64,000 nucleotides of DNA from Escherichia coli (GTDB lineage: Bacteria > Pseudomonadota > Gammaproteobacteria > Enterobacterales > Enterobacteriaceae), in NCBI RefSeq assembly GCF_030384885.1, contig NZ_CP128613.1. One strand, given 5' to 3'. Shown here piece after piece: positions 668 through 54,609 of the stretch (positions are counted from its first letter, which is position 1; every line of letters starts with the position of its first letter). A program made the translations under genes and the position numbers. The notes below the pieces were generated by a model, which had not been told where the DNA came from, did no database searches, and saw only the letters and a program-made list of their open reading frames with translations.

Positions 668-2749
668 TTACGCATTTGAGTAACGTTCTGTTTCTGGCAT
701 CCAGCGTTCTATCAGGGCTTTTGCCTGCTGTGGGTAACGTTCGTGAATATGGCGTGCCAGGCGCTGAACTTCCGGGATCATCGCCTGATCGCGCAGCAAA
801 TCCGCCACTTTAAATTCAGCATTACCCGTCTGACGCGTGCCTAACAATTCGCCAGGGCCGCGAATCTCCAGATCTTTCTGTGCAATCACAAAACCATCGT
901 TGCTGTCGCGCAGCACTTGCAGGCGAATTTGCGCCGTTTTAGAAAGCGGTGTTTTGTAGAGCAACACGCAGTGAGAAGCCACCGCGCCACGACCTACACG
1001 CCCGCGCAGCTGGTGTAACTGCGCCAGACCCAGACGCTCAGGGTTTTCGATAATCATCAGGCTGGCGTTAGGCACATCAACGCCGACTTCAATAACGGTC
1101 GTGGCAACCAGCAGGTGTAACTCGCCTTGTTTAAATGATGCCATGACGGCCTGCTTCTCGGCTGGTTTCATCCGTCCGTGTACCAGACCAACATTCAACT
1201 CTGGTAGCGCCAGTTTCAACTCTTCCCAGGTAGCTTCCGCCGCCTGTGCTTCCAGTAATTCTGATTCTTCAATGAGTGTGCACACCCAGTACGCCTGACG
1301 CCCTTCAGTCATACAGGCGTGGCGCACGCGGTCGATAATGTCGTTGCGGCGGGTATCCGGGATTGCCACTGTCGTCACTGGCGTGCGGCCTGGCGGCAGC
1401 TCATCTATCACCGAGGTATCGAGATCGGCATATGCAGTCATTGCCAGCGTGCGGGGGATCGGCGTGGCGGTCATGATCAACTGATGCGGATGGAAGCCCT
1501 GCTGCTGGCCTTTCTCCCATAACGCCAGACGCTGATGCACGCCAAAACGATGCTGTTCGTCGATAATCACCAGCGCCAGGCCGTTAAACTGCACCTGTTC
1601 CTGGAAGATGGCGTGTGTACCGACAATCATCTGCACCTGACCGCTGGCGATGGCTTCCTGCTGTGCCAGTCGTGCTTTACCTTTCTGTTTACCGGCGAGC
1701 CAGCCCACTTCGATACCGAGCGGAGCAAACCAGTTACGGAAGTTATTGGCGTGCTGCTCGGCGAGTAATTCGGTTGGTGCCATCAATGCCACCTGTTTGC
1801 CGTGCGCAATCGCACGCAACGCGGCGAGGGCGGCGACCAGCGTTTTACCGGAACCTACATCGCCCTGCACCAGGCGCATCATCGGCACATCCAGCGCCAT
1901 ATCGCGCTCGATCTCCGCCACCACGCGTGCCTGTGCGCCCGTTGGCTTGAACGGTAAGGCTGCGAGGAGTTTATTTTTCAGCGCGTCATTGGCGCTCAGC
2001 GGCTGGGCATGAAAACGCTGTGCTCCGGCACGTAAGGCTAACATGCTGAGGTTGTGCGCCAGCAACTCTTCCAGAATCAGCCGGCGTTGTGCCGGATGCT
2101 GCCCGGTTTCGAGATCGCTAAGCTGTAGCGTCGGCGGCGGGCGGTGCAAAGTGCGCAACGCTTCCGGTAGCGTCATCATTCCTTGTGACAGTTCCGGCGG
2201 CAGGAGTTCTTCAATAGCGCAGGTGTCGAGCAGATCCAGCGCCTGGTCGGTTAATTTACGCAGCGTGGCCTGCTTTACGCCTTCCGTAGTTGGGTAAACC
2301 GGCGTTAGCGTCTCCTGCAACTCTGGCATACTGAGATCGCCCTGCACGCGGTATTCCGGGTGGATCATCTCCGCACCATATTTACCGCGCTTTGCTTCGC
2401 CATAGGCCAGCACGCGGCGGCCAGTCGCCAGGCTATTTTTCATTGCCGCGTTGAAGTTGAAAAAGCGCATGGTGAGAATGCCGGAACCGTCGCTGATCTG
2501 GCAGGTCATCATCCGCCGACCGCCGAAGGAGATATTGCAATTCAGCACTTCGCCTTCCACCGTGGCATAAACGCCCGGCAGTAGTTCACCGATGGGGTAG
2601 AGATGGGTGCGATCTTCGTAGCGCAGAGGAAGGTGTAAGAGTAAATCCTGCACGGTATGCAGGTTGATTTTCGCCAGCTTGTTACTAAGCGCTGCACCAA
2701 CGCCCGTTAGGGAACTGAGCGGGACAGCATCTAACAGGCGACCTTTCAT
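668..2749 (-). CDS. recG: ATP-dependent DNA helicase RecG
   Basis: Translation matches RecG from MKGRLLDAVPLSSLTGVGAAL...; 693 aa from the second Met of the 704-aa ORF; GSGKT Walker A motif present. Confidence 0.97.
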   Translation of the reverse strand: MKGRLLDAVPLSSLTGVGAALSNKLAKINLHTVQDLLLHLPLRYEDRTHLYPIGELLPGVYATVEGEVLNCNISFGGRRMMTCQISDGSGILTMRFFNFNAAMKNSLATGRRVLAYGEAKRGKYGAEMIHPEYRVQGDLSMPELQETLTPVYPTTEGVKQATLRKLTDQALDLLDTCAIEELLPPELSQGMMTLPEALRTLHRPPPTLQLSDLETGQHPAQRRLILEELLAHNLSMLALRAGAQRFHAQPLSANDALKNKLLAALPFKPTGAQARVVAEIERDMALDVPMMRLVQGDVGSGKTLVAALAALRAIAHGKQVALMAPTELLAEQHANNFRNWFAPLGIEVGWLAGKQKGKARLAQQEAIASGQVQMIVGTHAIFQEQVQFNGLALVIIDEQHRFGVHQRLALWEKGQQQGFHPHQLIMTATPIPRTLAMTAYADLDTSVIDELPPGRTPVTTVAIPDTRRNDIIDRVRHACMTEGRQAYWVCTLIEESELLEAQAAEATWEELKLALPELNVGLVHGRMKPAEKQAVMASFKQGELHLLVATTVIEVGVDVPNASLMIIENPERLGLAQLHQLRGRVGRGAVASHCVLLYKTPLSKTAQIRLQVLRDSNDGFVIAQKDLEIRGPGELLGTRQTGNAEFKVADLLRDQAMIPEVQRLARHIHERYPQQAKALIERWMPETERYSNA

Positions 2750-2754
2750 GGCGC

Positions 2755-3444
2755 TTACCCTGCCGCCTGCATAGTGGCCCACCAGTCAGCATCGGCTTCA
2801 ATTTCGCCTTGCTGATTAACGTGGGGGTAAGGTAGGCCTTTGCGTTTTGCGACTTTCGCCAGCACCGGATAGCCGCCTTCAAACAACAGCCGTTGTTGCT
2901 CCGCTTCCGGCAACATGCTGTTTTCCCGCAGATACATGCCTGCGTTTTGCCGCTGGCGCTGGGCTTCGTAAAGAATAAGGGCTGAGGCAACGGAAACATT
3001 CAGCGACTGCACCATGCCGATCATCGGAATGATGATGTCCTGATCCGCCAGGGCTAACGCTTCCTGCGTGATACCCGTTTTCTCCTGACCCATCAAAATA
3101 CAGGTCGGGCGGGTGTAATCAATTTCGCGGAAATCGACAGCGTTATCAGAAAGATGTGTAGCCAGGATCTGCATTCCCTGGCCTTTCAGATGGGCAACGG
3201 CATCGCCAATGGTGCGGTGCGTTTTCACCTGTACCCAACTGTTGCTGCCAGCCGCAGCCGAAGCCATGGTGCGCATCCGGCTGCCAGGCCAGACGGCATG
3301 AACTTCATGTACGCCAACGGCATCTGCGGTACGAATAATCGCAGAAACGTTATGGGGTTTGTGGACCTGCTCCATGCAGACGGTCAGATCAGGCTGCCGC
3401 CTGGCGAGCATTTCGCAGATGCGTGCATAACGTGTTGGGTTCAT
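2755..3444 (-). CDS. trmH: tRNA (Gm18) 2'-O-methyltransferase TrmH (SpoU)
   Basis: 229-aa ORF MNPTRYARICEMLARRQPDL..., sitting between recG and spoT as in the spoT operon. Confidence 0.96.
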   Translation of the reverse strand: MNPTRYARICEMLARRQPDLTVCMEQVHKPHNVSAIIRTADAVGVHEVHAVWPGSRMRTMASAAAGSNSWVQVKTHRTIGDAVAHLKGQGMQILATHLSDNAVDFREIDYTRPTCILMGQEKTGITQEALALADQDIIIPMIGMVQSLNVSVASALILYEAQRQRQNAGMYLRENSMLPEAEQQRLLFEGGYPVLAKVAKRKGLPYPHVNQQGEIEADADWWATMQAAG

Positions 3445-3450
3445 AAAACA

Positions 3451-5559
3451 TTAATTTCGGTTTCGGGTGACTTTAATCACGTCTGGCATCACGCGGATTT
3501 TGCGCATGATATTCGCCAGATGCACACGGTCACGGGCGGTCAGACGAATAAAGGCGCTGTAGACGCGACCATCTTTTTCTTCTGTATTCAAACTTTGAAT
3601 ATTCGAGGTCGTGGTGTTAATTGCCGCCGTCAGGTTTGCCAGCGCGCCCTGATGATTGAACATCTCCACCTTGATTTCGGTGATGAACTCCTGTGCCGTC
3701 TCTTTATCCCATTCCACAGCCATAAATTTCTCTGGCTCTTTCTGGTAGCCACGGATGTTACGGCAGGATTCATGGTGGATCACCAGACCTTTACCGGGGC
3801 TGACGTGGGCGATAATCGGGTCGCCAGGAATGGGGCGGCAGCATTTCGCAAAGGTGATCAACACGCCATCAGCACCTTTAATCGGCAGATGCCCGTGGCT
3901 TTGAGTCGCCGGCGGAATGGAGGCGTCCCCATGTTGCATATTTTTCGCGACCACCACGCTCATTGCGTTACCAAGGCCGATTTCAGCCAGCAGATCGTCA
4001 AGCGTTGCCAGCTTCATGCGGTCCAGCTCGCGCTGAATATTTTCCGGCGGGATTTCATTGAGCTTACGGCTGCCACCCAACGCATGATTGAGCAGACGAC
4101 GGCCCAGGCTTACAGAATCATCACGCTTGAGGTTTTTCAGCAACTGACGAATTTTGGCGCGCGCTTTCGAGCTAACGACAAAGTTCAGCCACGCGGCGTT
4201 CGGGCGAGCGCCCGGTGCAGTAATGATTTCAACGGTTTGACCGCTGGTAAGCGGCTGCGACAGCGGGTAAGGCTGACGGTCGACGCGTGCGCCCACGCAG
4301 GCATGACCGATATCGGTATGTACCGCATAAGCGAAGTCGACAGGTGTTGCACCGGCAGGCAGCTCGACAATTCGCCCTTCCGGTGTGAAAACGTAAATCT
4401 CATCCGGGAAGAGATCGGATTTAACGCTCTCGATAAATTCAAACGAACTACCGGCGCTCTGTTGCAGCTCCAGCAGGCTTTGCATCCAGCGCTGGGCGCG
4501 AATTTGTGCGGTAGTACTGGTTTCGCCGTGCTCTTTATAAGCCCAGTGCGCGGCAACACCCATCTCTGCCATCTGATCCATATCTTCGGTACGGATCTGG
4601 ACTTCAACCGGCACGCCGTGCGGGCCAATCATCGAGGTGTGCAAAGACTGATAGCCGTTCGCTTTTGGAATGGCGATGTAGTCTTTCACGCGACCCGGAC
4701 GCGGCTTGTACAGGCTATGCATTTGCCCGAGCACGCGATAACAGGTGTCGGAATCATTGACGATCACGCGGAAGGCGTAGATGTCCATGATTGAGTGAAA
4801 ACGCTGCTCTTTGAGCACCATTTTGCAGTAGATCGAATAAAGATGCTTCTCGCGACCACTGACGCGGCACGGTATTCCCGCTTCCTGCAAACGCCCTTCG
4901 ATTTCCGAGAGGATTTTTTGGATCATCTCTTTACGGTTGCCGCGTGCGGCTTTCACCACTTCTTTGATTACGCGGTAACGGTTGGGATACAGCGCCTCAA
5001 AACCCAGCTCTTCGAGTTCGGTTTTAATGTGGTGGATACCTAAACGGTGTGCCAGCGGGCTGTAAATTTCGAGGGTTTCACGGGCGATGCGGCGACGTTT
5101 GTCCGGGCGAAGTGAGCCCAGCGTGCGCATGTTGTGGGTACGGTCGGCAAGTTTGATGAGAATGACGCGGATATCCTGCACCATCGCCATAATCATCTTG
5201 CGAAAGTTTTCGGCCTGCGCCTCTTTCTTATCGCGGAACTTGAGTTTATCAAGTTTCGACACCCCCTCTACCAGCTCGGCGACGCTTTTACCAAAAAGCT
5301 GTTCCATGTCCTGGTAGGTGGCGGGTGTATCTTCAATCACGTCATGCAGCAGCGCCGCCATTAGCGTTTCATAGTCGAGTTTCATCTCGGCCAGAATGCA
5401 GGCAACCGCTACCGGGTGCGTGATATAGGGTTCACCGCTTGAACGTGTTTGCCCCTCGTGAGCATCACGTGCAACGAGATACGCCTGCCGCAGACGCTTG
5501 ATTTGGTCTTCCGGCAGGTAGGTTTGAATCAGTTGATTCAGGCTTTCAAACAGATACAA
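3451..5559 (-). CDS. spoT: Bifunctional (p)ppGpp synthetase/hydrolase SpoT
   Basis: 702-aa ORF MYLFESLNQLIQTYLPEDQIKRLRQAY...; the start codon is TTG (caa on the + strand at 5557..5559), as known for spoT. Confidence 0.97.
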   Translation of the reverse strand: MYLFESLNQLIQTYLPEDQIKRLRQAYLVARDAHEGQTRSSGEPYITHPVAVACILAEMKLDYETLMAALLHDVIEDTPATYQDMEQLFGKSVAELVEGVSKLDKLKFRDKKEAQAENFRKMIMAMVQDIRVILIKLADRTHNMRTLGSLRPDKRRRIARETLEIYSPLAHRLGIHHIKTELEELGFEALYPNRYRVIKEVVKAARGNRKEMIQKILSEIEGRLQEAGIPCRVSGREKHLYSIYCKMVLKEQRFHSIMDIYAFRVIVNDSDTCYRVLGQMHSLYKPRPGRVKDYIAIPKANGYQSLHTSMIGPHGVPVEVQIRTEDMDQMAEMGVAAHWAYKEHGETSTTAQIRAQRWMQSLLELQQSAGSSFEFIESVKSDLFPDEIYVFTPEGRIVELPAGATPVDFAYAVHTDIGHACVGARVDRQPYPLSQPLTSGQTVEIITAPGARPNAAWLNFVVSSKARAKIRQLLKNLKRDDSVSLGRRLLNHALGGSRKLNEIPPENIQRELDRMKLATLDDLLAEIGLGNAMSVVVAKNMQHGDASIPPATQSHGHLPIKGADGVLITFAKCCRPIPGDPIIAHVSPGKGLVIHHESCRNIRGYQKEPEKFMAVEWDKETAQEFITEIKVEMFNHQGALANLTAAINTTTSNIQSLNTEEKDGRVYSAFIRLTARDRVHLANIMRKIRVMPDVIKVTRNRN

Positions 5560-5577
5560 GGGCGACCCGCTTTGTGA

Positions 5578-5853
5578 TTAACGACGACCTTCAGCAATAG
5601 CGGTAACGGCTTGTAATTCAGCGGCTTCCTGCTCTTGCTGTTCCTGGCGTTCGCGAACGTCGAGGATCTGGTTGTTAATCAGACCTTCTTCGATTTCGCG
5701 CAGCGCGATTACTGTGGTTTTATCGTTTTCTTCCGGTACCAGCGGATCCTTTCCGCCTACCTGCATCTGACGAGCGCGACGCGCGGCGACCAGTACCAGG
5801 TCAAAACGGTTACCAATTTTCTCTACAGCGTCCTGAACAGTTACGCGTGCCAT
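5578..5853 (-). CDS. rpoZ: RNA polymerase omega subunit
   Basis: 91-aa [32 protein letters not shown]... matches RpoZ. Confidence 0.98.
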
Positions 5854-5907
5854 ACTTAAAAAGCTCCACAGGTGAAGAAATGACTGGGCATGATACTGAA
5901 ATCAGGT

Positions 5908-6672
<765 letters not shown>

Positions 6673-6696
6673 GATTCACTGCAATAAAGACGATTC

Positions 6697-9085
<2,389 letters not shown>

Positions 9086-14986: not shown

Positions 14987-15181
14987 CCCGCTATGCGCGA
15001 TCCTTCGGGATCTTTGTCTGTTCGGGACTTGAGCACATCGCTGAGTCAGCGTATACTACGCCACCTTTGAGAATCTCGGGTTTGGCATTTGGGCCTGGCA
15101 ATCGAGAGTTCACATAGAACTGCGATGACCGGGCTGTAAAGCCTGACGAGGCGCCAATACCCCATACGAAGCTCGAGCTAA

Positions 15182-15439
<258 letters not shown>

Positions 15440-15456
15440 GTACTTAGAGGAAATAA

Positions 15457-15627
<171 letters not shown>

Positions 15628-15651
15628 TTCTCGCTTTGATGTAACGAAAAA

Positions 15652-15673
15652 CCTCGCTCCGGCGGGGTTTTTT
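15652..15673 (+). terminator. Rho-independent terminator of rpmBG
   Basis: Stem cctcgc/gcgggg (with a U-G wobble pair), loop tccg, followed by tttttt. Confidence 0.8.
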
Positions 15674-15724
15674 GTTATCTGCTTGCCCCCATATTGACTG
15701 CATCTGTTCATTCCCGGAGATGCT

Positions 15725-18659: not shown

Positions 18660-18700
18660 ATCAGTATTCAGGTAGCTGTTGAGCCTGGGGCGGTAGCGTG
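18660..18700 (+). promoter_or_regulatory. JUMPstart region with ops element (RfaH recruitment site) in the waaQ leader
   Basis: GGCGGTAGCGTG at 18689..18700 matches the ops consensus GGCGGTAGnnTG on the non-template strand upstream of waaQ. Confidence 0.85.
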
Positions 18701-20929: not shown

Positions 20930-21719
20930 ACTGAAAGAGCCGTTTGCCACGTTATGGCGCGGTAAAGATCCTTTTGAGGAGGTTAAAACCTTGCAGGGTG
21001 AGGTATTTCGTGAACTGGAAACTCGCCGCACTCTGCGCTTTGAAATGGCGGGCAAAAGCTATTTTCTCAAATGGCATCGCGGCACGACCCTGAAAGAGAT
21101 AATCAAAAATTTACTCTCATTGCGGATGCCAGTATTAGGCGCAGACCGCGAATGGAATGCGATTCATCGGCTGCGGGATGTCGGCGTTGATACTATGTAT
21201 GGGGTGGCATTCGGCGAAAAAGGCATTAATCCGCTGACCAGAACCTCGTTTATTATAACCGAAGATCTGACACCAACCATCAGTCTGGAAGATTACTGTG
21301 CTGACTGGGCGACTAACCCTCCAGATGTTCGCGTAAAGCGTATGCTTATTAAGCGTGTCGCGACGATGGTGCGCGATATGCATGCTGCGGGCATTAACCA
21401 CCGTGACTGTTATATCTGTCATTTCCTGCTGCACTTGCCTTTTTCTGGTAGGGAAGAGGAGTTAAAAATTTCGGTAATTGACCTGCACCGGGCGCAGCTT
21501 CGCACGCGCGTTCCACGTCGTTGGCGCGATAAAGATCTTATTGGGCTTTATTTTTCTTCGATGAATATTGGCCTGACTCAGCGGGATATCTGGCGGTTCA
21601 TGAAGGTGTATTTTGCTGCCCCGCTTAAAGACATTCTCAAGCAGGAACAAGGGCTGCTGTCGCAAGCAGAAGCAAAAGCCACAAAAATCAGGGAAAGAAC
21701 GATTCGAAAATCGTTGTAA
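20922..21719 (+). CDS. waaP: LPS core heptose(I) kinase WaaP
   Basis: 265 aa from [33 protein letters not shown]... Confidence 0.95.
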
Positions 21720-21761
21720 CCCGTAACTTATTTTTGCCAAAAATTTGGATACAGAGTAAAT

Positions 21762-22769
21762 ATGTCTCAACTCAATGATAGTGACATCATCCTTTTTGAG
21801 TATAATTTTCATTATAAGAATATAAGATCTAAAAATACTCTTGATATAGCATTTGGAATTGATAGAAATTTTCTTTTTGGATGTGGTGTAGCCATTGCAT
21901 CTATTCTATTAAACAATAGCGAAATCTCTTGTGAATTTCATGTTTTCACAGATTATATCAGTGATAAAGACAAGTTATATTTTTCCGATTTAGCAAAACA
22001 ATATAATTCAAGAATTAATATTTATGTTATCAATTGTGATAAGCTGAAGTCATTACCAAGCACGAAAAACTGGACTTACGCAACATATTTTCGATTTATA
22101 ATTGCAGATTATTTCTATAGTAAACATGAAAAAATACTATATCTTGATGCAGATATTGCTTGCAAGGGTAGTATTAAAGAACTCTTAGATTATCAATTTT
22201 CTACTAATGAAATTGCCGCAGTTGTAGCTGAAAGAGATGTTGAATGGTGGCAGAATCGAGCCTCGATACTAACTACACCGCAATTAGCTTCTGGATATTT
22301 TAATGCTGGTTTTTTGCTGATAAATATTGTTGAGTGGAATCGAAATAACATTTCGTCAAAAGCTATTGAAATGTTGCGTGATCCAGATTGGGTAAGTAAA
22401 ATCACCCACCTTGATCAAGATGTCCTGAATGTATTATTGAATGGTAAAGTCAAATTTATATCAGAAAAATATAATACCCGATATAGTATTAACTATGAAT
22501 TAAAAGACAAGGTTGATAATCCAGTCAATGATGACACTGTGTTCATACACTATGTAGGGCCTACAAAACCCTGGCATGAGTGGGCTGATTATCCTGTGTC
22601 ACGTAGTTTTTTGATCGCCAAAGCTGCTTCTCCGTGGTGTAAAGAAGATTTACTTAAACCTGTAAATAGCAATCAGTATCGGTATTGCGCAAAACATAAA
22701 TTTAAACAAAAGCATTATATAGCAAGCATTCTTAATTATTTAAAATATTATAAAGAAAAATGCTTCTAA
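21762..22769 (+). CDS. waaI: Glycosyltransferase family 8 outer-core hexosyltransferase (WaaI-like, R3-type)
   Basis: GT8-type sequence with DAD motif (YLDADIACKGS); low-GC gene; the name follows the R3 gene order Q-G-P-I-Y-J-D. Confidence 0.75.
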   Translation: MSQLNDSDIILFEYNFHYKNIRSKNTLDIAFGIDRNFLFGCGVAIASILLNNSEISCEFHVFTDYISDKDKLYFSDLAKQYNSRINIYVINCDKLKSLPSTKNWTYATYFRFIIADYFYSKHEKILYLDADIACKGSIKELLDYQFSTNEIAAVVAERDVEWWQNRASILTTPQLASGYFNAGFLLINIVEWNRNNISSKAIEMLRDPDWVSKITHLDQDVLNVLLNGKVKFISEKYNTRYSINYELKDKVDNPVNDDTVFIHYVGPTKPWHEWADYPVSRSFLIAKAASPWCKEDLLKPVNSNQYRYCAKHKFKQKHYIASILNYLKYYKEKCF

Positions 22770-22794
22770 ATATTTAAGGTTAAAATACTTCATC

Positions 22795-23502
22795 ATGATA
22801 TATAATAAAACGATAAATGGGTTGAAAGTTCTCATAAAAGATAATGATCCCTTTTACGAGCAAGTTCTGAATGACTTTTTAACTTGTAGGATTAAAACAT
22901 TAAAAGTTTTTCGTTCTATTGATGATACTAAAGTCATTCTTATTGACACTGCTCGCGGACCTCTTGTGCTTAAAGTTTATGCGCCAAAGCATAAAATGGC
23001 CGAACGTTTCTTAAAATCTTGTGTCAAAAAAGATTATTATGAGAACTTAATTTATCAAACTGATCGGGTACGTGGTGAGGGCATCCAATCAATTAATGAC
23101 TATTTTTTACTTGCTGAACGTAAAACATTAAATTTCTCACATTATTATATTATGCTCATTGAGTATATTGAAGGTGTGGGGTTAAATGAGTATTCGGAAA
23201 TTTCAGAAGATCTGAAGCATCAATTATCAGAATCGATTAAAGAGTTGCATCAGCATGGAATGGTGTCTGGCGATCCTCATAAAGGAAATTTTATAGTATC
23301 CGAAAAAGGATTAAGACTAATAGACCTTTCAGGTAAAAAAACAACCGCAGTTTTAAAAGCGAAAGATCGTATTGATCTCGAACGGCACTATAATATAAAA
23401 AATGAATTGAAAGACTTTGGCTATACATACCTTGTATTCAAAAAGAAAATTAAAAAAGCAATCAGGGATGTAAAAATCAAGCTGGGATTGAAGAACAAAT
23501 AA
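22795..23502 (+). CDS. waaY: LPS core heptose(II) kinase WaaY
   Basis: 235-aa small kinase-like ORF between two GT8 genes, as expected for WaaY; low GC. Confidence 0.8.
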   Translation: MIYNKTINGLKVLIKDNDPFYEQVLNDFLTCRIKTLKVFRSIDDTKVILIDTARGPLVLKVYAPKHKMAERFLKSCVKKDYYENLIYQTDRVRGEGIQSINDYFLLAERKTLNFSHYYIMLIEYIEGVGLNEYSEISEDLKHQLSESIKELHQHGMVSGDPHKGNFIVSEKGLRLIDLSGKKTTAVLKAKDRIDLERHYNIKNELKDFGYTYLVFKKKIKKAIRDVKIKLGLKNK

Positions 23503-23526
23503 TATTTATGATGAAGGGTAACTAAA

Positions 23527-24540
23527 TTGGATTTTAAACATCTTACTCGATTTAAAGATATAATTGAACTGGACAAACGCCCTGTTAAAATTGAAGAACG
23601 GGAAACGTTCAATGTCTCATGGGGTATTGATGAGAACTACCAGATTGGGGCTGCGATTTCAATTGCTTCAATTCTTGAAAATAATAAAGAAAACAACTTC
23701 ACCTTTCACGTAATCGCTGATTACTTAGACAAAGAGTATATTGAATTATTATCACAATTAGCAACGAAATATCGAACGGTTATTAAATTATATCATATTG
23801 ATTCTGAGCCACTGAAAGCGTTACCTCAATCAAATATCTGGCCAGTATCTATTTATTATCGTTTGCTTTCATTTGATTATTTTTCTTCGCGATTAGATTC
23901 ATTATTATATCTTGATGCTGATATTGTCTGTAAGGGTTCATTAAATGAGTTACTGGAATTAGAATTTAAAGATGAATATGGTGCTGTAGTAATTGATGTT
24001 GATGCTATGCAAAGTAAAAGTGCTGAGCGTTTGTGTAATGGGGATTTTAACGGTAGCTATTTTAACTCTGGTGTAATGTATATTAATTTACGAGAATGGT
24101 TAAAACAAAGACTAACGGAGAAATTCTTTGATCTATTATCAGATGAGTCAATTATCAAAAAATTAAAGTACCCGGATCAAGATATTTTAAACTTAATGTT
24201 TCTACATCATGCTAAAATATTACCAAGAAAATATAATTGTATTTATACTATAAAATCAGAATTTGAAGAAAAAAATAGCGAATATTATACCCGTTTTATT
24301 AATGATGAAACTGTCTTCATACATTACACTGGTGTAACTAAGCCATGGCATGATTGGGCGAACTATGCATCGGCAGATTATTTTCGTAATATTTATAATA
24401 TATCTCCATGGAGAAATATACCTTATAAAAAAGCTGTTAAAAAACATGAGTATAAAGAAAAATATAAGCACTTGCTTTACCAGAAAAAATTTCTTGATGG
24501 TGTTTTTACAGCAATTAAATATAATGTTATGAAAGGTTAA
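23527..24540 (+). CDS. waaJ: Glycosyltransferase family 8 outer-core hexosyltransferase (WaaJ-like)
   Basis: Second GT8 paralogue (LYLDADIVCKGS); TTG start at 23527. Confidence 0.75.
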   Translation: MDFKHLTRFKDIIELDKRPVKIEERETFNVSWGIDENYQIGAAISIASILENNKENNFTFHVIADYLDKEYIELLSQLATKYRTVIKLYHIDSEPLKALPQSNIWPVSIYYRLLSFDYFSSRLDSLLYLDADIVCKGSLNELLELEFKDEYGAVVIDVDAMQSKSAERLCNGDFNGSYFNSGVMYINLREWLKQRLTEKFFDLLSDESIIKKLKYPDQDILNLMFLHHAKILPRKYNCIYTIKSEFEEKNSEYYTRFINDETVFIHYTGVTKPWHDWANYASADYFRNIYNISPWRNIPYKKAVKKHEYKEKYKHLLYQKKFLDGVFTAIKYNVMKG

Positions 24541-24548
24541 TATTCGAG

Positions 24549-25691
24549 ATGGTTGATAAAATAATATTTACAGTTACTCCTATTTTTTCAATTCCTCCTC
24601 GCGGAGCGGCCGCTGTTGAAACGTGGATGTATCAGGTTGCTCAGCGTACCAATTTCCCAAATCGTATTGTTTGTATCAAGAATCCAGGATACTCAAATTA
24701 CACCTTTGTTAATGATAATTGTAGTATTCATAGGGTTGGATTCAGTCGCATATATAAGCGGTTATTTCAAAAATGGACAAGACTTGATCCTCTTCCATAT
24801 TCACAGAGAATATTGAATATTGCCCATGATTTTCCTATAACGAAAGAAAGTGTTATTGTAGTTCATAATAGCATGAAGCTATACACTCAAATTCGTAAGC
24901 GAGCACCTCAGGCAAGAGTGGTTATACATATGCATAATGCATTTGAACCAAAATTGCTTGAGCAAAATGTTAAAATGATAGTGCCTAGTTTATACTTGAA
25001 AAAGTATTACCAATCTTATTTAGCAAATGCAGATATTGAGATTGTACCAAATGGAATTGATTTAGAAACCTATCAATCTACTTTTCAGCCGATCACTAGA
25101 AGCGAACTTAGTATCTCCCCTGAAGAGAAAATTATTTTTTATGCTGGGCGTATCGTCCCTGACAAAGGCATATTACTGTTGATGCAATCATTCGAAAAAT
25201 TGGCCGCTGCTCACAAAAATTTAAAATTAGTTGTGATTGGTGATTATACAGAAATGAGTAAAAGTGACAAAGGTGCATATCAACACAATGTCAGGGAAAT
25301 TGCAAAACGTTTGAAGGATCGTTGCATTATGTTAGGAAGCATACCGCCTGAAAAGATGCATTGTTATTACCCACTGGCAGATTTAGTTGTCATTCCTTCC
25401 CAGTTCCAGGAACCATTTTGCATGGTGGCAATTGAAGCTATGGGGGCTGGTAAGCCTGTTTTAGTGAGTACGCGTGGGGGGATGACGGAATTTGTCAAAG
25501 AAAATACTACGGGATTCCATTTAAAAGAACCTATGTCTGCAGACTCTATAAGCAGCGATATTTTAAAAACGTTAGCGAATCCTGAATTAACAGCAGTTGC
25601 AAAGCAAGGTCAGGATTTTGTGTTTGATCACTACAGTTGGGATGGCGTAACTCAAAGATTTGAAGAGGTCATTCATAATTGGTTTGAATAA
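24549..25691 (+). CDS. waaD: GT4 glycosyltransferase, WaaD-like (R3 core-type-specific transferase)
   Basis: 380-aa GT4-like ORF with a C-terminal E-x7-E-like region (FCMVAIEAMGAGKPVL); last gene before convergent waaL, as in R3-type clusters. Confidence 0.7.
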   Translation: MVDKIIFTVTPIFSIPPRGAAAVETWMYQVAQRTNFPNRIVCIKNPGYSNYTFVNDNCSIHRVGFSRIYKRLFQKWTRLDPLPYSQRILNIAHDFPITKESVIVVHNSMKLYTQIRKRAPQARVVIHMHNAFEPKLLEQNVKMIVPSLYLKKYYQSYLANADIEIVPNGIDLETYQSTFQPITRSELSISPEEKIIFYAGRIVPDKGILLLMQSFEKLAAAHKNLKLVVIGDYTEMSKSDKGAYQHNVREIAKRLKDRCIMLGSIPPEKMHCYYPLADLVVIPSQFQEPFCMVAIEAMGAGKPVLVSTRGGMTEFVKENTTGFHLKEPMSADSISSDILKTLANPELTAVAKQGQDFVFDHYSWDGVTQRFEEVIHNWFE

Positions 25692-25692
25692 A

Positions 25693-25722
25693 TAAAAAGG
25701 CCGCATTATGCAGCCTTTTTTA
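25693..25722. terminator. Bidirectional terminator between waaD and waaL
   Basis: aaaaaggccgcattatgcagcctttttt: imperfect hairpin flanked by A and T runs. Confidence 0.7.
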
Positions 25723-25726
25723 TTTT

Positions 25727-26935
25727 TTACTTGTTTTTCATTGCTAATAATAAGCCGGCGTAAACGCCTAATAAATTTGGTTCAATTTGTTCTACGTTTC
25801 CACGGATAACAAAATAACCTATAAAAGATAGTAAGATTATATAATATGCATTATATGGTGAGCGGTTTTTATTCTGGACGCTATTTTTTATACACTCTTT
25901 CAATATTGCGCAGTATAGCATCATAAGACTTATCAGCCCTAATAAACCAGTGCCAAACCAGATGAATAGCGCAAAATTATGTGGCCCTATCGATTGTCTA
26001 AAGGTCCATTCTGGATAATCAACGACACGTTTATTATAGACATCTTTATATGCAACGTTACCGTAACCGTAACCAATAACAGGATTTTCTAATATTAGAT
26101 CGAGTGCGCTGCCTTGAGTACCATTTGCATAGCGATAAGAACTATTAGTTTGTTGAAGTTTATACGTTAGATTTGCGGTCATCTCCTTATGTGTGAAAAT
26201 AACCGATAATGCAATGATGGAAACCATTACTCCTACTAATAGTAACTTCCATTGTTTAAACATCAGAATCCATATTAATCCAATGACTAACACGGAAAGC
26301 CAGGCTCCTCTGGATAAAGTTCCTAATATCAGAAAAATAAAAATAACGCTTAGAACCGCAAAAGAAATGCGGTATTTTGCTGATTTGATAAGCCAGAGAT
26401 TTAACAATGCAGGAAATAAAAAGACCATCGAGTCAGAAATGCTACGGTGTCTATAATCTGCAAATGGCATTACCCCTTGTTGATAGTCCTTATAATAGGC
26501 AATCAATTCAGAAAAACAACGTAAGCCCAACGCACTTATAAATGAGAAGAAAACGATTTTTTCGACATCTTCTCTTTTCTCGTCTCTCAATATGACCGGT
26601 ATTGCTATTGTGCACAGTAAAGTATTCTCAATGATAGCTTTGAAAATTTCCTTCATGCTAGCACCTGCATCTGGGGATTGAAGAAGTGATAGCAATGCAG
26701 CAATAGTTAATATGGCAACACTACCAAAAAGACATGTTTTAAATAGTGAAAGATAGTGTTTTGGCCGTTTGCAGAGATAGACGATTGTCGTTATTGTCAT
26801 AAGAATAACAATAAGATGTTTATACCTTGTAATCCCACCCAAAAAATAGGTGGTAATGAATAAGAATACGAGAGCTCTGTTCCAGTACGCTATCCAGTTT
26901 TTTTTCTCGAGAGAGAAAAATAATGTTGAGGTCAT
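25727..26935 (-). CDS. waaL: O-antigen ligase WaaL
   Basis: 402-aa polytopic membrane protein; low GC; immediately downstream of waaC, overlapping it by 4 nt. Confidence 0.85.
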   Translation of the reverse strand: MTSTLFFSLEKKNWIAYWNRALVFLFITTYFLGGITRYKHLIVILMTITTIVYLCKRPKHYLSLFKTCLFGSVAILTIAALLSLLQSPDAGASMKEIFKAIIENTLLCTIAIPVILRDEKREDVEKIVFFSFISALGLRCFSELIAYYKDYQQGVMPFADYRHRSISDSMVFLFPALLNLWLIKSAKYRISFAVLSVIFIFLILGTLSRGAWLSVLVIGLIWILMFKQWKLLLVGVMVSIIALSVIFTHKEMTANLTYKLQQTNSSYRYANGTQGSALDLILENPVIGYGYGNVAYKDVYNKRVVDYPEWTFRQSIGPHNFALFIWFGTGLLGLISLMMLYCAILKECIKNSVQNKNRSPYNAYYIILLSFIGYFVIRGNVEQIEPNLLGVYAGLLLAMKNK

Positions 26936-27924
26936 CTTATCTCCGATATCAACTTATTGGTTATTATTTCAAGATTTAAATTTTGAAAAACGGTTTGAGC
27001 TGGCAAATCTGCAAGAGACATACTTGTAGAACGACACTCTACTTGATTCTTCCCATACCCACCAATTAATCCCGGATCGGTAGGTCCATAAACCGTGATA
27101 TTGGGTCTATCCAGTGCCGCCGTTAAATGGCTTAACCCCGTATCCACCGACACCACAAATTTAGCCCCGGCCAGCACGCGGGCAACGCCTTCCAGACTCA
27201 TCTTCGGCAATACTTCAACATAAGCAAATCCTTCCGCCAGTCGTTTCGCCCGTTCTTCCTCATGCGGCGCGCCCCACGGAAGTTTAATCCGTATTCCTGA
27301 ATCAGCCAGTAAACCAATCAATTCTCGCCAGTGTTCTTCCGGCCAGTGTTTATCATCTCGGGTTGTTGCATGAAGAAATACGGCATATTCGCCAGCATCT
27401 GTAGGCAGGTTCGTCAGGAAATGCTGTGCGATAGCATAATCGCCCTGAGTCTGCGGTTTGCTATAGCCCAGACTTTTGGCAAACAGTTCGCGGGTGCGTT
27501 CTACGGCGTGCTGCTGTTTTGCAATATGATGTTTACGATTGTAAAACAGGCTGGCTAAAGGTTCGCGAGCGGTTTGCCAGTCCATTCCATGCTTTACGCC
27601 ATGCGCCAGACGCGTCACCAGCGCCGCGCTTTTTACCAGCCCCTGAGCGTCGATAATTGCGTCATAGTTCTCTGCTTGTAGCGCTTCACGAAACGCTTTC
27701 CGTTCAGCTTTTATGGGGGCCGAGAACCAGGCTTTACGCCAGCGACGTATTGCCACAGGAATAACTCGCTCAACGGCGGCGTGCCAGGAAGGAATTTGTG
27801 CGAACCCTTCTTCCACCACCCAGTCAAACTTAATCCCCGGGATTGCCTGCTGGGCATCAGTGAGTGCGGGCAACGTATGGAGAACATCGCCCATCGACGA
27901 TGTTTTAACGATCAAAACCCGCAT
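26932..27924 (-). CDS. waaC: LPS heptosyltransferase I WaaC
   Basis: ORF MRVLIVKTSSMGDVLHTLPALTDAQQAIPGIKFDWVVEEGF... Confidence 0.95.
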   Translation of the reverse strand: MRVLIVKTSSMGDVLHTLPALTDAQQAIPGIKFDWVVEEGFAQIPSWHAAVERVIPVAIRRWRKAWFSAPIKAERKAFREALQAENYDAIIDAQGLVKSAALVTRLAHGVKHGMDWQTAREPLASLFYNRKHHIAKQQHAVERTRELFAKSLGYSKPQTQGDYAIAQHFLTNLPTDAGEYAVFLHATTRDDKHWPEEHWRELIGLLADSGIRIKLPWGAPHEEERAKRLAEGFAYVEVLPKMSLEGVARVLAGAKFVVSVDTGLSHLTAALDRPNITVYGPTDPGLIGGYGKNQVECRSTSMSLADLPAQTVFQNLNLEIITNKLISEIR

Positions 27925-51898: not shown

Positions 51899-52582
51899 TT
51901 ATTTTTTGTTTTTTCGCTGCCGGGTTTCAGCAGGTTGAACAGTGTCGAACTGGAGATTAGCCATATTGATGGACAACTTCAGATACTTCAGGTTATTAGG
52001 TGAAACGCCTTTTAATGTCAGATTAATGTCTTGCCATTGACCTGGCATTAATTGCAGGGTGGAGTTCATGGTGGTGTTGAACAGCAGTCGCTGCCACTTT
52101 GCCAGCGCTTTGGCATCGGTGGGTCTTTCATTGCCCCATGTGGCTTGAAAGCCAATATTTGATACGGGAACGCTTAATAGGTTGACCAGCGAAATACGAA
52201 TAACGCTGCCATTTTCAACCGCATCAATAGCCAGCACCCGGCCTGCCAAACCAACCGAGCCATTGTTTAAAATGAAGTATTTTGTTTGTGCTGGGTTAAA
52301 TTCGGTGAAGACAAATTCGTCCTGTTTGTCTTTGACTGCCTTTACTACACCCGCCAGCACTTTAGTGGTGTTTGCAATATTAATTTGTTGATTTTCAATA
52401 ATTTCTATTTTTCTTTTATATTGTTCTTGTTCTTTTTCAAGAATCTCTATTTTACTTTTTTGCAATTCTTGCTGTTTGACAAGATCGTCGATCAGATTCG
52501 CTTTCTCAATATAGTCACACCCAGTCAATACCCAGAGTGGCAATGTTATCAACATGCTTAATAGTGCTTTTTTGATGCTCAT
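51899..52582 (-). CDS. SadB-like lipoprotein encoded upstream of the adhesin
   Basis: 227-aa ORF with a lipobox (LTGC) after the signal peptide, a coiled-coil segment (QQELQKSKIEILEKEQEQYKRKIEIIENQQ) and a C-terminal domain; only 43 nt from the adhesin start on the same strand. Confidence 0.75.
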   Translation of the reverse strand: MSIKKALLSMLITLPLWVLTGCDYIEKANLIDDLVKQQELQKSKIEILEKEQEQYKRKIEIIENQQINIANTTKVLAGVVKAVKDKQDEFVFTEFNPAQTKYFILNNGSVGLAGRVLAIDAVENGSVIRISLVNLLSVPVSNIGFQATWGNERPTDAKALAKWQRLLFNTTMNSTLQLMPGQWQDINLTLKGVSPNNLKYLKLSINMANLQFDTVQPAETRQRKNKK

Positions 52583-53155
52583 AGGGTGAATTCCTTTTCA
52601 TGATCCCGATACGTTAACTGTTACGGCGTAATCATCCTTTTTATGAATGATTCGAGTGGAAAATATACGCTATATAAATTTATAAGAGACTTTTTCTATT
52701 AATTGTTGTATTAATTGGTAGTGCGAACATGACATTAAATGTCAGACAATTTCAGATTGTAGCCAATAATATTAATCGCGCGGATTTTAATGATCGATGT
52801 CAATCAATGTCAAATGTTTCACCGGATGAAAACACCGACCAGGAGAAATATTAATATTCAGCATGGTGATGTTTTCTTGGGAAGTGTGTGATTCTGAGCG
52901 ATAAATATAAATAATTAATGGCTGTTACAGGCATTAATGTGCATTAATTCATTGTTATCGCTTATATATCACTTTTTTATTCCATACCATAATTTCAGAA
53001 TTTAGCCTGTAATATGCGCTTCAAAGAGCCGGTGAGATGGAAGCAATAGTGATAAGAATGTTAAAGATATCCGATATCTGGTATCAGGCTCCTGCATGTG
53101 CCAGCAGGAGCGAGTAAATCGTGAGAGGCTGTGATTACAGCGGTGAGACAGGTAC

Positions 53156-53518
53156 TTAAAATGCGGTCTTAGAGAATCCGGTCATCTCTTGCAGGCCCAT
53201 TTCACGGCCCAGCGCGGTCATCGGATGCACAACTACCAGTCCGCGAACACTTTTCTTCAGCTTGCCCATATCAGCCTGCTCTTTTTTGGTAATCGCGCGC
53301 TGGAAGGGCATTTTCATCAGTTTTTGCGCTTCTTTACTGAGTTTCTGGCTGTGAACTTCACGCAGGCGAGCAATTTCGGCTTCCAGCGTGGCTTTTTCTT
53401 TTTCCAGTTCGGCATATTTATCTGCGGCTTCAACCAGTGACAGGTCAGCCTGCTGATGGCGGATAGCGTCCAGGCGATCGCTGAGACGTTTGATTTCGTT
53501 TTTTTCGACTTCTTTCAT
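53156..53518 (-). CDS. yibL: YibL (DUF2810, ribosome-associated protein)
   Basis: 120-aa [58 protein letters not shown]... Confidence 0.93.
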
Positions 53519-53801
53519 GTGATGACTTCTGATAGAGATAAATTTATAGCCTCTAGTATGCGCGACCAGGTGCTTTGTTCACAACAGATGGCATTGTAAT
53601 AGTTCCAGATTGTAACCATTAATGTGTTTGAAAATCACCCAATCTATTGATTAATTAGGAAATTTAAAGAAAAAAGATAGACAACAGAAGAGGATCATTA
53701 TTGAGGATTGAGCACGTTTTCCTTAATGTCATTTAGACCGGGATCTAAACTAAAATTGGCGGCCGCGCATTCCCGGCGCGGGGTAATACGGAGATATCAT
53801 C

Positions 53802-54011
53802 ATGGGCAAATTAGGTGAAAACGTTCCGCTTCTTATCGATAAAGCTGTAGATTTCATGGCATCGAGCCAGGCGTTCCGGGAGTATCTGAAAAAACTTCCT
53901 CCCCGCAATGCGATTCCATCCGGAATACCTGATGAAAGCGTGCCGTTATATCTACAACGTCTGGAGTATTATCGTCGGCTTTATCGGCCGAAACAGGTAG
54001 AGGAGAAGTAA
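53802..54011 (+). CDS. yibT: Small protein YibT
   Basis: 69-aa [37 protein letters not shown]... in the yibL-mtlR gap, where yibT lies in K-12. Confidence 0.75.
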
Positions 54012-54021
54012 GCGAAAGTAC

Positions 54022-54609
54022 TTACTTTTGAAAGGCTTTTTTTAAGCTGATTTTGGAAATCAGCTCTGTCAGTGAAAGGACCATTGTTGATCGCACAGCC
54101 TGTTGGTAACGCTGAATTTGCATTGCATACAAACTGGAGTCTGCGGGTTCAAACTGTGGCGGCGGTGGTAACGCCGCCACACAGTGCAGCTCACCAAAGG
54201 GGCCAAGAATTTCGTCGTCGGTAAAGGCGTACTCATTGCCGTCGTGATTTAGTTCTTCACGCAATGCCATCAGCAGTTCCGCATCTTCATATTCATGGCG
54301 GTTAATGACACCCAACCCGTAAATGAGTTTTAAACGCACAGAAAGATCGCCCAGCGGGCCATCGCCGTCGAGTAACGGTTCTACAGCATACTTCACCGCG
54401 TAATCGTCTTTGCGGAATACCTGAAGCACCAGAAGATTTACCGCCTCGGTCAAAAGCTCGACGGCGGTAATCAGAAAGCTTCGCACGGTTTTGCCAGCAT
54501 TCAGACGCTCAAGCACACGGTTTTCAAAGGCCTGGGTTTGTTCCATTGTTGCCTGCATATCTGACAATCTGTTATTCGGGCGCAGGGAGTCCTGCGCCTG
54601 GTCCACCAT
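54022..54609 (-). CDS. mtlR: Mannitol operon repressor MtlR
   Basis: 195-aa [56 protein letters not shown]... Confidence 0.96.
   Translation of the reverse strand: MVDQAQDSLRPNNRLSDMQATMEQTQAFENRVLERLNAGKTVRSFLITAVELLTEAVNLLVLQVFRKDDYAVKYAVEPLLDGDGPLGDLSVRLKLIYGLGVINRHEYEDAELLMALREELNHDGNEYAFTDDEILGPFGELHCVAALPPPPQFEPADSSLYAMQIQRYQQAVRSTMVLSLTELISKISLKKAFQK

Follow-up and report, generated by a model that had tools for sequence, protein, structure and literature searches.

The window analysed here is a stretch of 64,000 nucleotides of Escherichia coli DNA, and our subject is the 573-bp interval at its positions 52583-53155. This interval is exactly the non-coding gap between the stop codon of yibL (53156) and the ATG of a lipoprotein gene (52582). 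The genes mtlA, mtlD, mtlR, yibT and yibL lie upstream of it and lldP lies downstream, which places the site between the mtl and lld operons. Against the crystal structure of SadB from Salmonella (PDB 4C47) the lipoprotein gives a match with E = 3.2e-70 over residues 23-227, and it bears the RefSeq name "SadB/YajI family lipoprotein" or DUF3251. Its gene stands directly upstream of an adhesin gene, at a spacing of 43 bp (51856-51898), and the adhesin contains the Pfam domains ESPR (1.8e-15), YadA_head (1.1e-55), YadA_stalk (5.3e-122) and YadA_anchor (5.4e-19). By position this adhesin is the orthologue of UpaG, EhaG and SadA, with the gene order of upaG in CFT073 and of ehaG in O111. Among the matching genomes listed, RefSeq annotates no feature inside the gap. 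An earlier note on this DNA had proposed an upstream regulatory region of a lipoprotein-adhesin operon at this place, and the proposal is borne out: the gap is the yibL-sadB interval, it holds a candidate promoter, and it is the cis-regulatory region upstream of a sadB-adhesin operon of the sadBA / upaG-ehaG type. The features are collected in Table 1.

Table 1. Features of the yibL-sadB-adhesin locus in window coordinates.
Feature	Position	Strand	Basis or detail
yibL	53518-53156	(-)	Pfam DUF2810; NCBIfam YibL equivalog
yibL 3' double stem-loop, terminator-like, no U-run	53071..53111	(-)	Fold and covariation
Upstream AT-rich region, candidate H-NS binding/nucleation zone	52815..53085	(-)	GC 0.343
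Upstream copy of 25-nt direct repeat	52991..53015	(-)	Sense ATATTACAGGCTAAATTCTGAAATT; about -238 to -214
Core sigma-70 promoter (predicted)	52784..52813	(-)	TTGACA (52813-52808), 18-nt spacer, TAAAAT (52789-52784)
FNR/CRP-family-like palindrome	52794..52807	(-)	TTGATTGACATCGA; 9/10 match, in promoter spacer, centred at about -23.5
Predicted transcription start	52776..52778	(-)	Promoter geometry, ~7 nt past the -10
Downstream copy of 25-nt direct repeat	52748..52772	(-)	Sense ATATTATTGGCTACAATCTGAAATT; about +6 to +30
Predicted 195-nt 5' UTR	52583..52777	(-)	GC 0.31; Shine-Dalgarno AAGGA at 52597-52593
Small AU-rich 5' UTR hairpin	52630..52652	(-)	AAUCAUUC-loop-GGAUGAUU; ~47 nt before the ATG
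sadB-type inner-membrane lipoprotein gene, 227 aa	51899..52582	(-)	Homology to 4C47
Trimeric autotransporter adhesin gene, 1675 aa	46828..51855	(-)	Pfam and gene order

The coding part of the locus varies between strains. The adhesin of strain 2013C-4282 has 1959 aa (positions 2394-8273 of the retrieved locus) and that of the window 1675 aa, the two gaps being 100% identical; the difference in length is probably a polymorphism in the number of stalk repeats. The 5' part of sadB carries, inside its AT-rich half, a 42-nt tandem duplication with 74% identity (52400-52483) that corresponds in the protein alignment to the repeated coiled-coil segment of SadB. The annotation of EPEC E2348/69 treats the sadB-type gene as a pseudogene with an internal stop (positions 843-1463 of the retrieved locus), and there the adhesin gene seems to be truncated or broken into fragments.

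Conservation and origin of the locus

We compared the locus with E. coli allele classes represented by NRZ105822, CFT073, JJ1886 (ST131), E2348/69 and an O111:H11 ehaG strain, with a further E. coli contig, and with Escherichia sp. E1V33, E. albertii, E. fergusonii, E. marmotae, E. ruysiae, Pseudocitrobacter vendiensis and a contig whose record is labelled Salmonella enterica. A contig scan by peptide patterns gave only 8 loci, the patterns being too specific, and further orthologues were added separately. The gene order mtlR-yibT-yibL-gap-sadB-adhesin is found in all of the orthologues; six Escherichia lineages share it, and it is kept in E. coli, E. albertii, E. fergusonii, E. marmotae, E. 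ruysiae, Pseudocitrobacter and the Salmonella-labelled record. Grin et al. described the locus as conserved and as deleted in K-12 (PMC3953254). Likewise, in a K-12-type genome yibL is followed directly by lldP. The earlier description of the operon as horizontally acquired is not supported, the gene order being the same across genera and the adhesin having a genome-typical GC content of 0.516. The idea of xenogeneic silencing presupposes DNA of recent foreign origin, and the gene order, the GC content and the deletion in K-12 all speak against such an origin. Because the locus is ancestral and its gene order is kept across genera, "xenogeneic" is a poor description of it.

The gap itself is conserved in a different manner. 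All 12 orthologous gaps measure 493-573 bp and have a GC content of 0.30-0.36, with a mean column identity of merely 56%. Length and composition are thus conserved without sequence, as would be expected if they were selected by a silencer that reads composition, such as H-NS.

Within E. coli the divergence is concentrated in the gap and in two parts of the operon. From mtlR to yibL the window is 90-100% identical to other E. coli, and in the gap identity falls to 54-81% (35-57% against the ehaG-type strain). Against the non-ehaG alleles it climbs back to 87-98% over the 3' half of sadB, and in the passenger domain of the adhesin it breaks down once more. Among 5426 complete E. coli genomes, 28 carry the haplotype of the window at 97.6% identity or more. 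The match is 100% in 2013C-4282 and in ten further complete genomes, and the strains with an identical gap include strain 6409. The next haplotype class, to which CFT073 belongs, is 79.4% identical, with no intermediates between the two. The gaps of ST131 and E2348/69 are ~67% identical to that of the window, and blastn does not detect the ehaG class. To judge from these alignments, the control region is a set of discrete, deeply diverged haplotypes, all with the core promoter retained.

The neighbouring yibL gene shows a further peculiarity. Its DNA (53156-53518) is ~91.6% identical to that of K-12-type strains, and its protein (WP_000665680.1) is identical in all strains examined; this synonymous divergence is unusually deep for a core gene of E. 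coli, and the gene adjoins the variable locus. We also encountered E. coli-like yibL-sadB loci in metagenome-assembled genomes labelled Oscillospiraceae, Collinsella and Bacillota, where they are most likely a contamination of the bins by Escherichia contigs.

A predicted, conserved near-consensus promoter

About 340 nt into the gap, counted from yibL, we find a predicted sigma-70 promoter that matches the consensus at 11 of 12 positions. Its 18-nt spacer is suboptimal, though within the range of 16-18 nt. Only three sites as good as this one are present on both strands of the 64 kb, and a match of this quality arises in 5.5% of dinucleotide shuffles of the gap (P = 0.055). The promoter coincides with the most conserved 31-column block of the gap (52814-52784), which scores 0.81 against a mean of 0.62 (sd 0.09). 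Its TTTGAC and most of its -10 hexamer are invariant in the 12 orthologues, and the conserved zone around it extends from 52825 to 52726, roughly -48 to +50. It is the combination of the near-consensus match with this phylogenetic footprint that mainly supports the call. Promoter prediction had been put forward in the earlier note as a check on the region, and it yields a near-consensus site at 52813-52784 that is conserved in 12 orthologues. The transcript is predicted to start at about 52777, with a GC-rich discriminator (CCGCGCG) ahead of the start, and to carry a leader of 195 nt.

The predicted leader as a whole folds no better than shuffled sequences (z +0.70), and folding is likewise not significant for the hairpin at the Shine-Dalgarno sequence (z +0.47) or for the 5' end of the leader (z +0.50). 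The small AU-rich hairpin listed in Table 1 is more stable than shuffles (-7.4 kcal/mol, z -3.2). The UpaG-like alleles and Pseudocitrobacter retain it, the loop varying from 5 to ~9 nt and the stem having changed on both sides at some points; over all 12 sequences just 66% of the cells are paired.

At the other end of the gap, its first ~85 nt hold a double stem-loop that we read as the 3' end of yibL. The main stem pairs GCUCCUGC (53111-53104) with GCAGGAGC (53095-53088), and the double structure folds at -20.7 kcal/mol (z -3.67), none of 200 shuffles being as stable. Over the 12 orthologues 85% of the cells of the main stem are paired, and both sides have changed in 6 of its 8 pairs. This covarying hairpin argues that transcription of yibL stops ahead of the promoter. 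A terminator scan found no T-run terminator after yibL.

Searches for hidden genes in the gap gave neither an Rfam match nor a generally conserved small ORF. Rfam gave zero matches at E<=1 on both strands of 51500-54500, and a scan of the whole window at the gathering score placed none in the gap. Its sole match in the window is a JUMPstart element (RF01707, 55.2 bits) at 18662-18700, which adjoins long, very AT-rich stretches at 21410-27163 (minimum GC 0.27) that are probably the waa LPS-core cluster. The 12 orthologous gaps contain 74 small ORFs of at least 20 aa, none of them universal; sharing is confined to alleles that are close and have conserved DNA at that place. A longer ORF-free gap, the longest of the window, lies elsewhere, at 14987-15724 (738 bp); it has an ordinary GC content of 0.486 and may represent a pseudogene or a feature missed by annotation.

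Base composition and limits of the AT-rich tract

The GC content of the gap is 0.360 against 0.494 for the window, and 9.3% of all 573-bp windows are equal or lower. Of the 19 ORF-free gaps that reach 100 bp, it ranks second in length and fourth from the bottom in GC content (median 0.458), and the window contains several stretches that are far more AT-rich. Runs of A/T only that reach at least 6 nt number 17, with 14.1 expected from composition (P = 0.17). The nucleotides in A/T runs amount to 154, with 109 expected (P = 0.011), and the longest run measures 19 nt (P = 0.03). TpA steps have a frequency of 0.093 in the gap and of 0.050 in the window. The region had been described as strongly AT-rich with multiple A/T tracts. 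Its GC content is indeed low, but not extreme among the gaps of the window; its A/T runs are longer than composition predicts, but not more numerous.

The limits of the AT-rich DNA differ from those of the gap. The 70 bp next to yibL (53086-53155) have a GC content of 0.56 and belong to yibL, and at the other end the low-GC tract runs ~340 bp into the sadB gene, the 5' half of which (52241-52582) has a GC content of 0.35. With a GC-rich stretch at one end and a continuation into sadB at the other, the AT-rich unit comes to about 52241-53085 (845 bp, GC 0.34). The limits first given, 52583-53155, are thus right for the non-coding gap and offset for the compositional tract. On either definition several hundred bp are clearly above average in AT content, with GC 0.36 over 573 bp and 0.34 over 845 bp. 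The part upstream of the promoter (52815-53085), at about -38 to -308 from the predicted start, is conserved in composition and poorly so in sequence; it is a candidate upstream zone for binding or nucleation of H-NS.

Beyond AT content, motif counts and predicted curvature were uninformative about H-NS. Sites resembling the high-affinity motif of H-NS (TCGATAAATT-like), at up to 2 mismatches, number 3 in the gap and 1.3 in shuffles (P = 0.13). Predicted curvature lies at the 49th percentile of the window in a home-made, unvalidated Bolshoy-Trifonov wedge model, which places local peaks at 52698-52711 and 52998-53018.

A direct repeat around the promoter

Two copies of a 25-nt direct repeat flank the promoter. 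They match at 21 of 25 positions, a value that none of 300 dinucleotide shuffles reaches (mean 17.0, sd 0.8), and the downstream copy falls within the conserved zone 52825-52726. The upstream copy contains TCTGAAA (52993-52999), which is present in 11 of the 12 orthologues and reads TCCGAAA in Pseudocitrobacter; it lies 169-184 bp upstream of the -35, a near-constant distance across orthologues. Of the 14 alleles searched, 6 have CTGAAAT at the downstream position, at a distance of 229-243 bp from the upstream copy. We considered TCTGAAA as a -10 element of sigma-E and rejected it on inspection of the orthologue alignment by eye, which displays no conserved GGAACTT-like -35 at the right distance. 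We could assign neither TCTGAAA nor the 25-nt repeat to a known binding site.

Scans of the region for Fur boxes and for CRP and IHF sites gave weak or chance-level matches. The FNR/CRP-family-like palindrome in the promoter spacer arises by chance in ~6% of shuffles and is degraded in other alleles, so that it is an allele-specific or a chance match. An invertible switch of the fimS kind was also considered and discarded, the flanking inverted repeats being limited to short AT-rich chance pairs.

Probable silencing by H-NS and competing explanations

Published data on other strains bear directly on the control of this locus. UpaG is named among the UPEC autotransporters repressed by H-NS in a passage of PMC5012682 that cites Totsika et al. 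2012, and a passage of a 2025 review reports upaG as derepressed upon deletion of hns (PMC12525524). In Salmonella, expression of SadA is absent under culture conditions, and the conditions of its native expression are unknown according to Grin et al. (PMC3953254). In a fur mutant of S. Typhimurium STM3690 (sadB) was 4.2-fold lower and hns 3.1-fold higher, and STM3690 is listed as affected by Fur and Fnr (PMC3212961); a drop of STM3690 together with raised hns would fit a dose-dependent repression by H-NS. A literature search for H-NS ChIP data on the locus found nothing useful.

The reading that we favour, and consider probable though well short of certain, is that the gap controls the sadB-adhesin operon and contains an intrinsically strong sigma-70 promoter that is kept off by H-NS. 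Silencing of the window's own haplotype by H-NS is likely, by analogy with the strains cited. In this model the near-consensus promoter would start a transcript at ~52777 with a 195-nt AT-rich leader. It would sit in the middle of the tract, with ~270 bp of AT-rich DNA upstream, followed by the leader and then by the 5' half of sadB (845 bp at 34% GC). H-NS, possibly together with StpA, would coat or bridge the AT-rich flanks of the promoter. The promoter, though intrinsically strong, would thereby stay silent in the laboratory until an anti-silencing signal allowed expression. We infer the binding of H-NS to the window allele, the start site and the bridging geometry. Several points weigh against this reading: the window allele is only ~79% identical to that of CFT073 and partly unalignable with the EhaG type, a GC content of 0.36 is within the range of the ordinary intergenic DNA of the window, matches to the H-NS motif stay at the level that composition predicts, predicted curvature is average, and the promoter spacer is suboptimal.

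An ordinary regulated promoter without H-NS silencing, for which a specific activator or signal is missing and around which the AT-richness is merely intergenic, is unlikely. The activating input would be anaerobiosis via FNR, iron via Fur, or a factor at the TCTGAAA elements. Such a promoter would account for a gap whose GC content of 0.36 is unremarkable among the gaps of the window and in which neither H-NS motifs nor predicted curvature are enriched. It would also give a role to the two conserved GGCTA..CTGAAAT elements that flank the promoter ~240 bp apart and to the 9/10 FNR-like site in the spacer, and it agrees with the effect of Fur and Fnr on STM3690 in Salmonella (PMC3212961). However, the FNR-like site is not conserved and the Fur-box matches are weak, and the orthologues conserve AT content and length but not sequence, which silencers that read composition predict. 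The upaG gene, at the same locus, is reported as derepressed by hns deletion in the passages cited (PMC5012682, PMC12525524). Silencing and activator-dependent control are not mutually exclusive.

The direct repeat allows a related reading, which we regard as unlikely: the gap, instead of being a passive target of H-NS, would be one of several ancient, discrete regulatory haplotypes that share the core promoter and a pair of GGCTA..(T)CTGAAAT elements, and a regulator would bind both copies and loop the promoter. The elements, at about -220 and +20, could serve a regulator that either represses or counters H-NS. If this were true, the haplotype-specific DNA around the promoter would lead to lineage-specific conditions of expression.

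It is very unlikely that sadB and the adhesin are transcribed by read-through from yibL and that the gap is a fast-evolving spacer or a recombination junction. Against it, a stable and covarying stem-loop comes after yibL in 12 of 12 orthologues, and a near-consensus promoter is the best-conserved block, which is unexpected in a neutral spacer. In its favour are the shared strand of yibL, the lack of a T-run terminator in the scan, and the position of the gap as a hot spot of divergence, with 54-81% identity between flanks of 90-100%. We give almost no credence to an unannotated gene in the gap, be it a small RNA, a riboswitch-like leader or a small protein, which the length of the predicted leader (195 nt), the conserved zone from +1 to +50 and the small hairpin (52630-52652, z -3.2) would suit, since Rfam has no matches in the gap at E<=1 or at the gathering score, the whole leader folds like shuffles (z +0.70), no small ORF is common to all orthologues and, among the genomes listed, no RefSeq annotation lies under the match.

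Comparison with known systems

The locus, its operon structure and its repression by H-NS are already known from other E. coli strains and from Salmonella. With repression by H-NS published for the same locus in other strains, the control region of the window, with its probable silencing, is a real but ordinary finding. What is added here are the coordinates of the predicted promoter, the leader of ~195 nt, the corrected limits of the AT-rich tract, the structure at the 3' end of yibL, the TCTGAAA motif and the haplotype structure. These additions may aid the search for conditions in which adhesins of the UpaG/EhaG/SadA type are expressed, and have little import beyond annotation.

The closest known systems are the upstream regions of upaG in CFT073, the reference strain for UpaG, and of ehaG in EHEC, both reportedly repressed by H-NS (Totsika et al. 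2012, AEM 78:2179); they occupy the same locus in the order mtl, yibL, sadB-type lipoprotein, trimeric autotransporter, lld. Their gaps measure 558 bp in CFT073 and 542 bp in the O111 ehaG strain, against 573 bp in the window, in the same range of GC content, and they share with it the promoter block TTGACA...TA(A/G)AAT. The window differs from both as a distinct rare haplotype, to which the CFT073 class is nearest (79%); ehaG is largely unalignable outside the promoter. The sadBA operon of Salmonella has the same position between mtl and lld and the same homology to SadB (E 3e-70), and is silent in culture (PMC3953254). The upstream region of the Salmonella-labelled record has only the -35, the -10 and TCTGAAA in common with the window. 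In the work of Grin et al. the native promoter of sadBA was replaced by PBAD (PMC3953254), and our literature search found no regulatory study of the native sadBA promoter.

More distant parallels are upaC, upaH, the F9 fimbriae and sslE, which are grouped with UpaG in a passage of PMC5012682 and likewise combine an AT-rich upstream region with a surface-protein gene that stays silent in laboratory culture and is derepressed when hns is mutated. They differ in that they are mostly strain-specific or island genes, whereas the locus of the window is ancestral. The haplotype structure has its own parallel in regulatory-region switching, in which, as Oren et al. reportedly described in 2014, non-homologous intergenic alleles of E. 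coli core genes are spread by recombination. The window resembles such cases in having discrete, diverged intergenic haplotypes between conserved flanks. Unlike them, it retains the core promoter in all haplotypes, and the variation affects the AT-rich surroundings of the promoter, the 5' part of sadB and the passenger domain of the adhesin.
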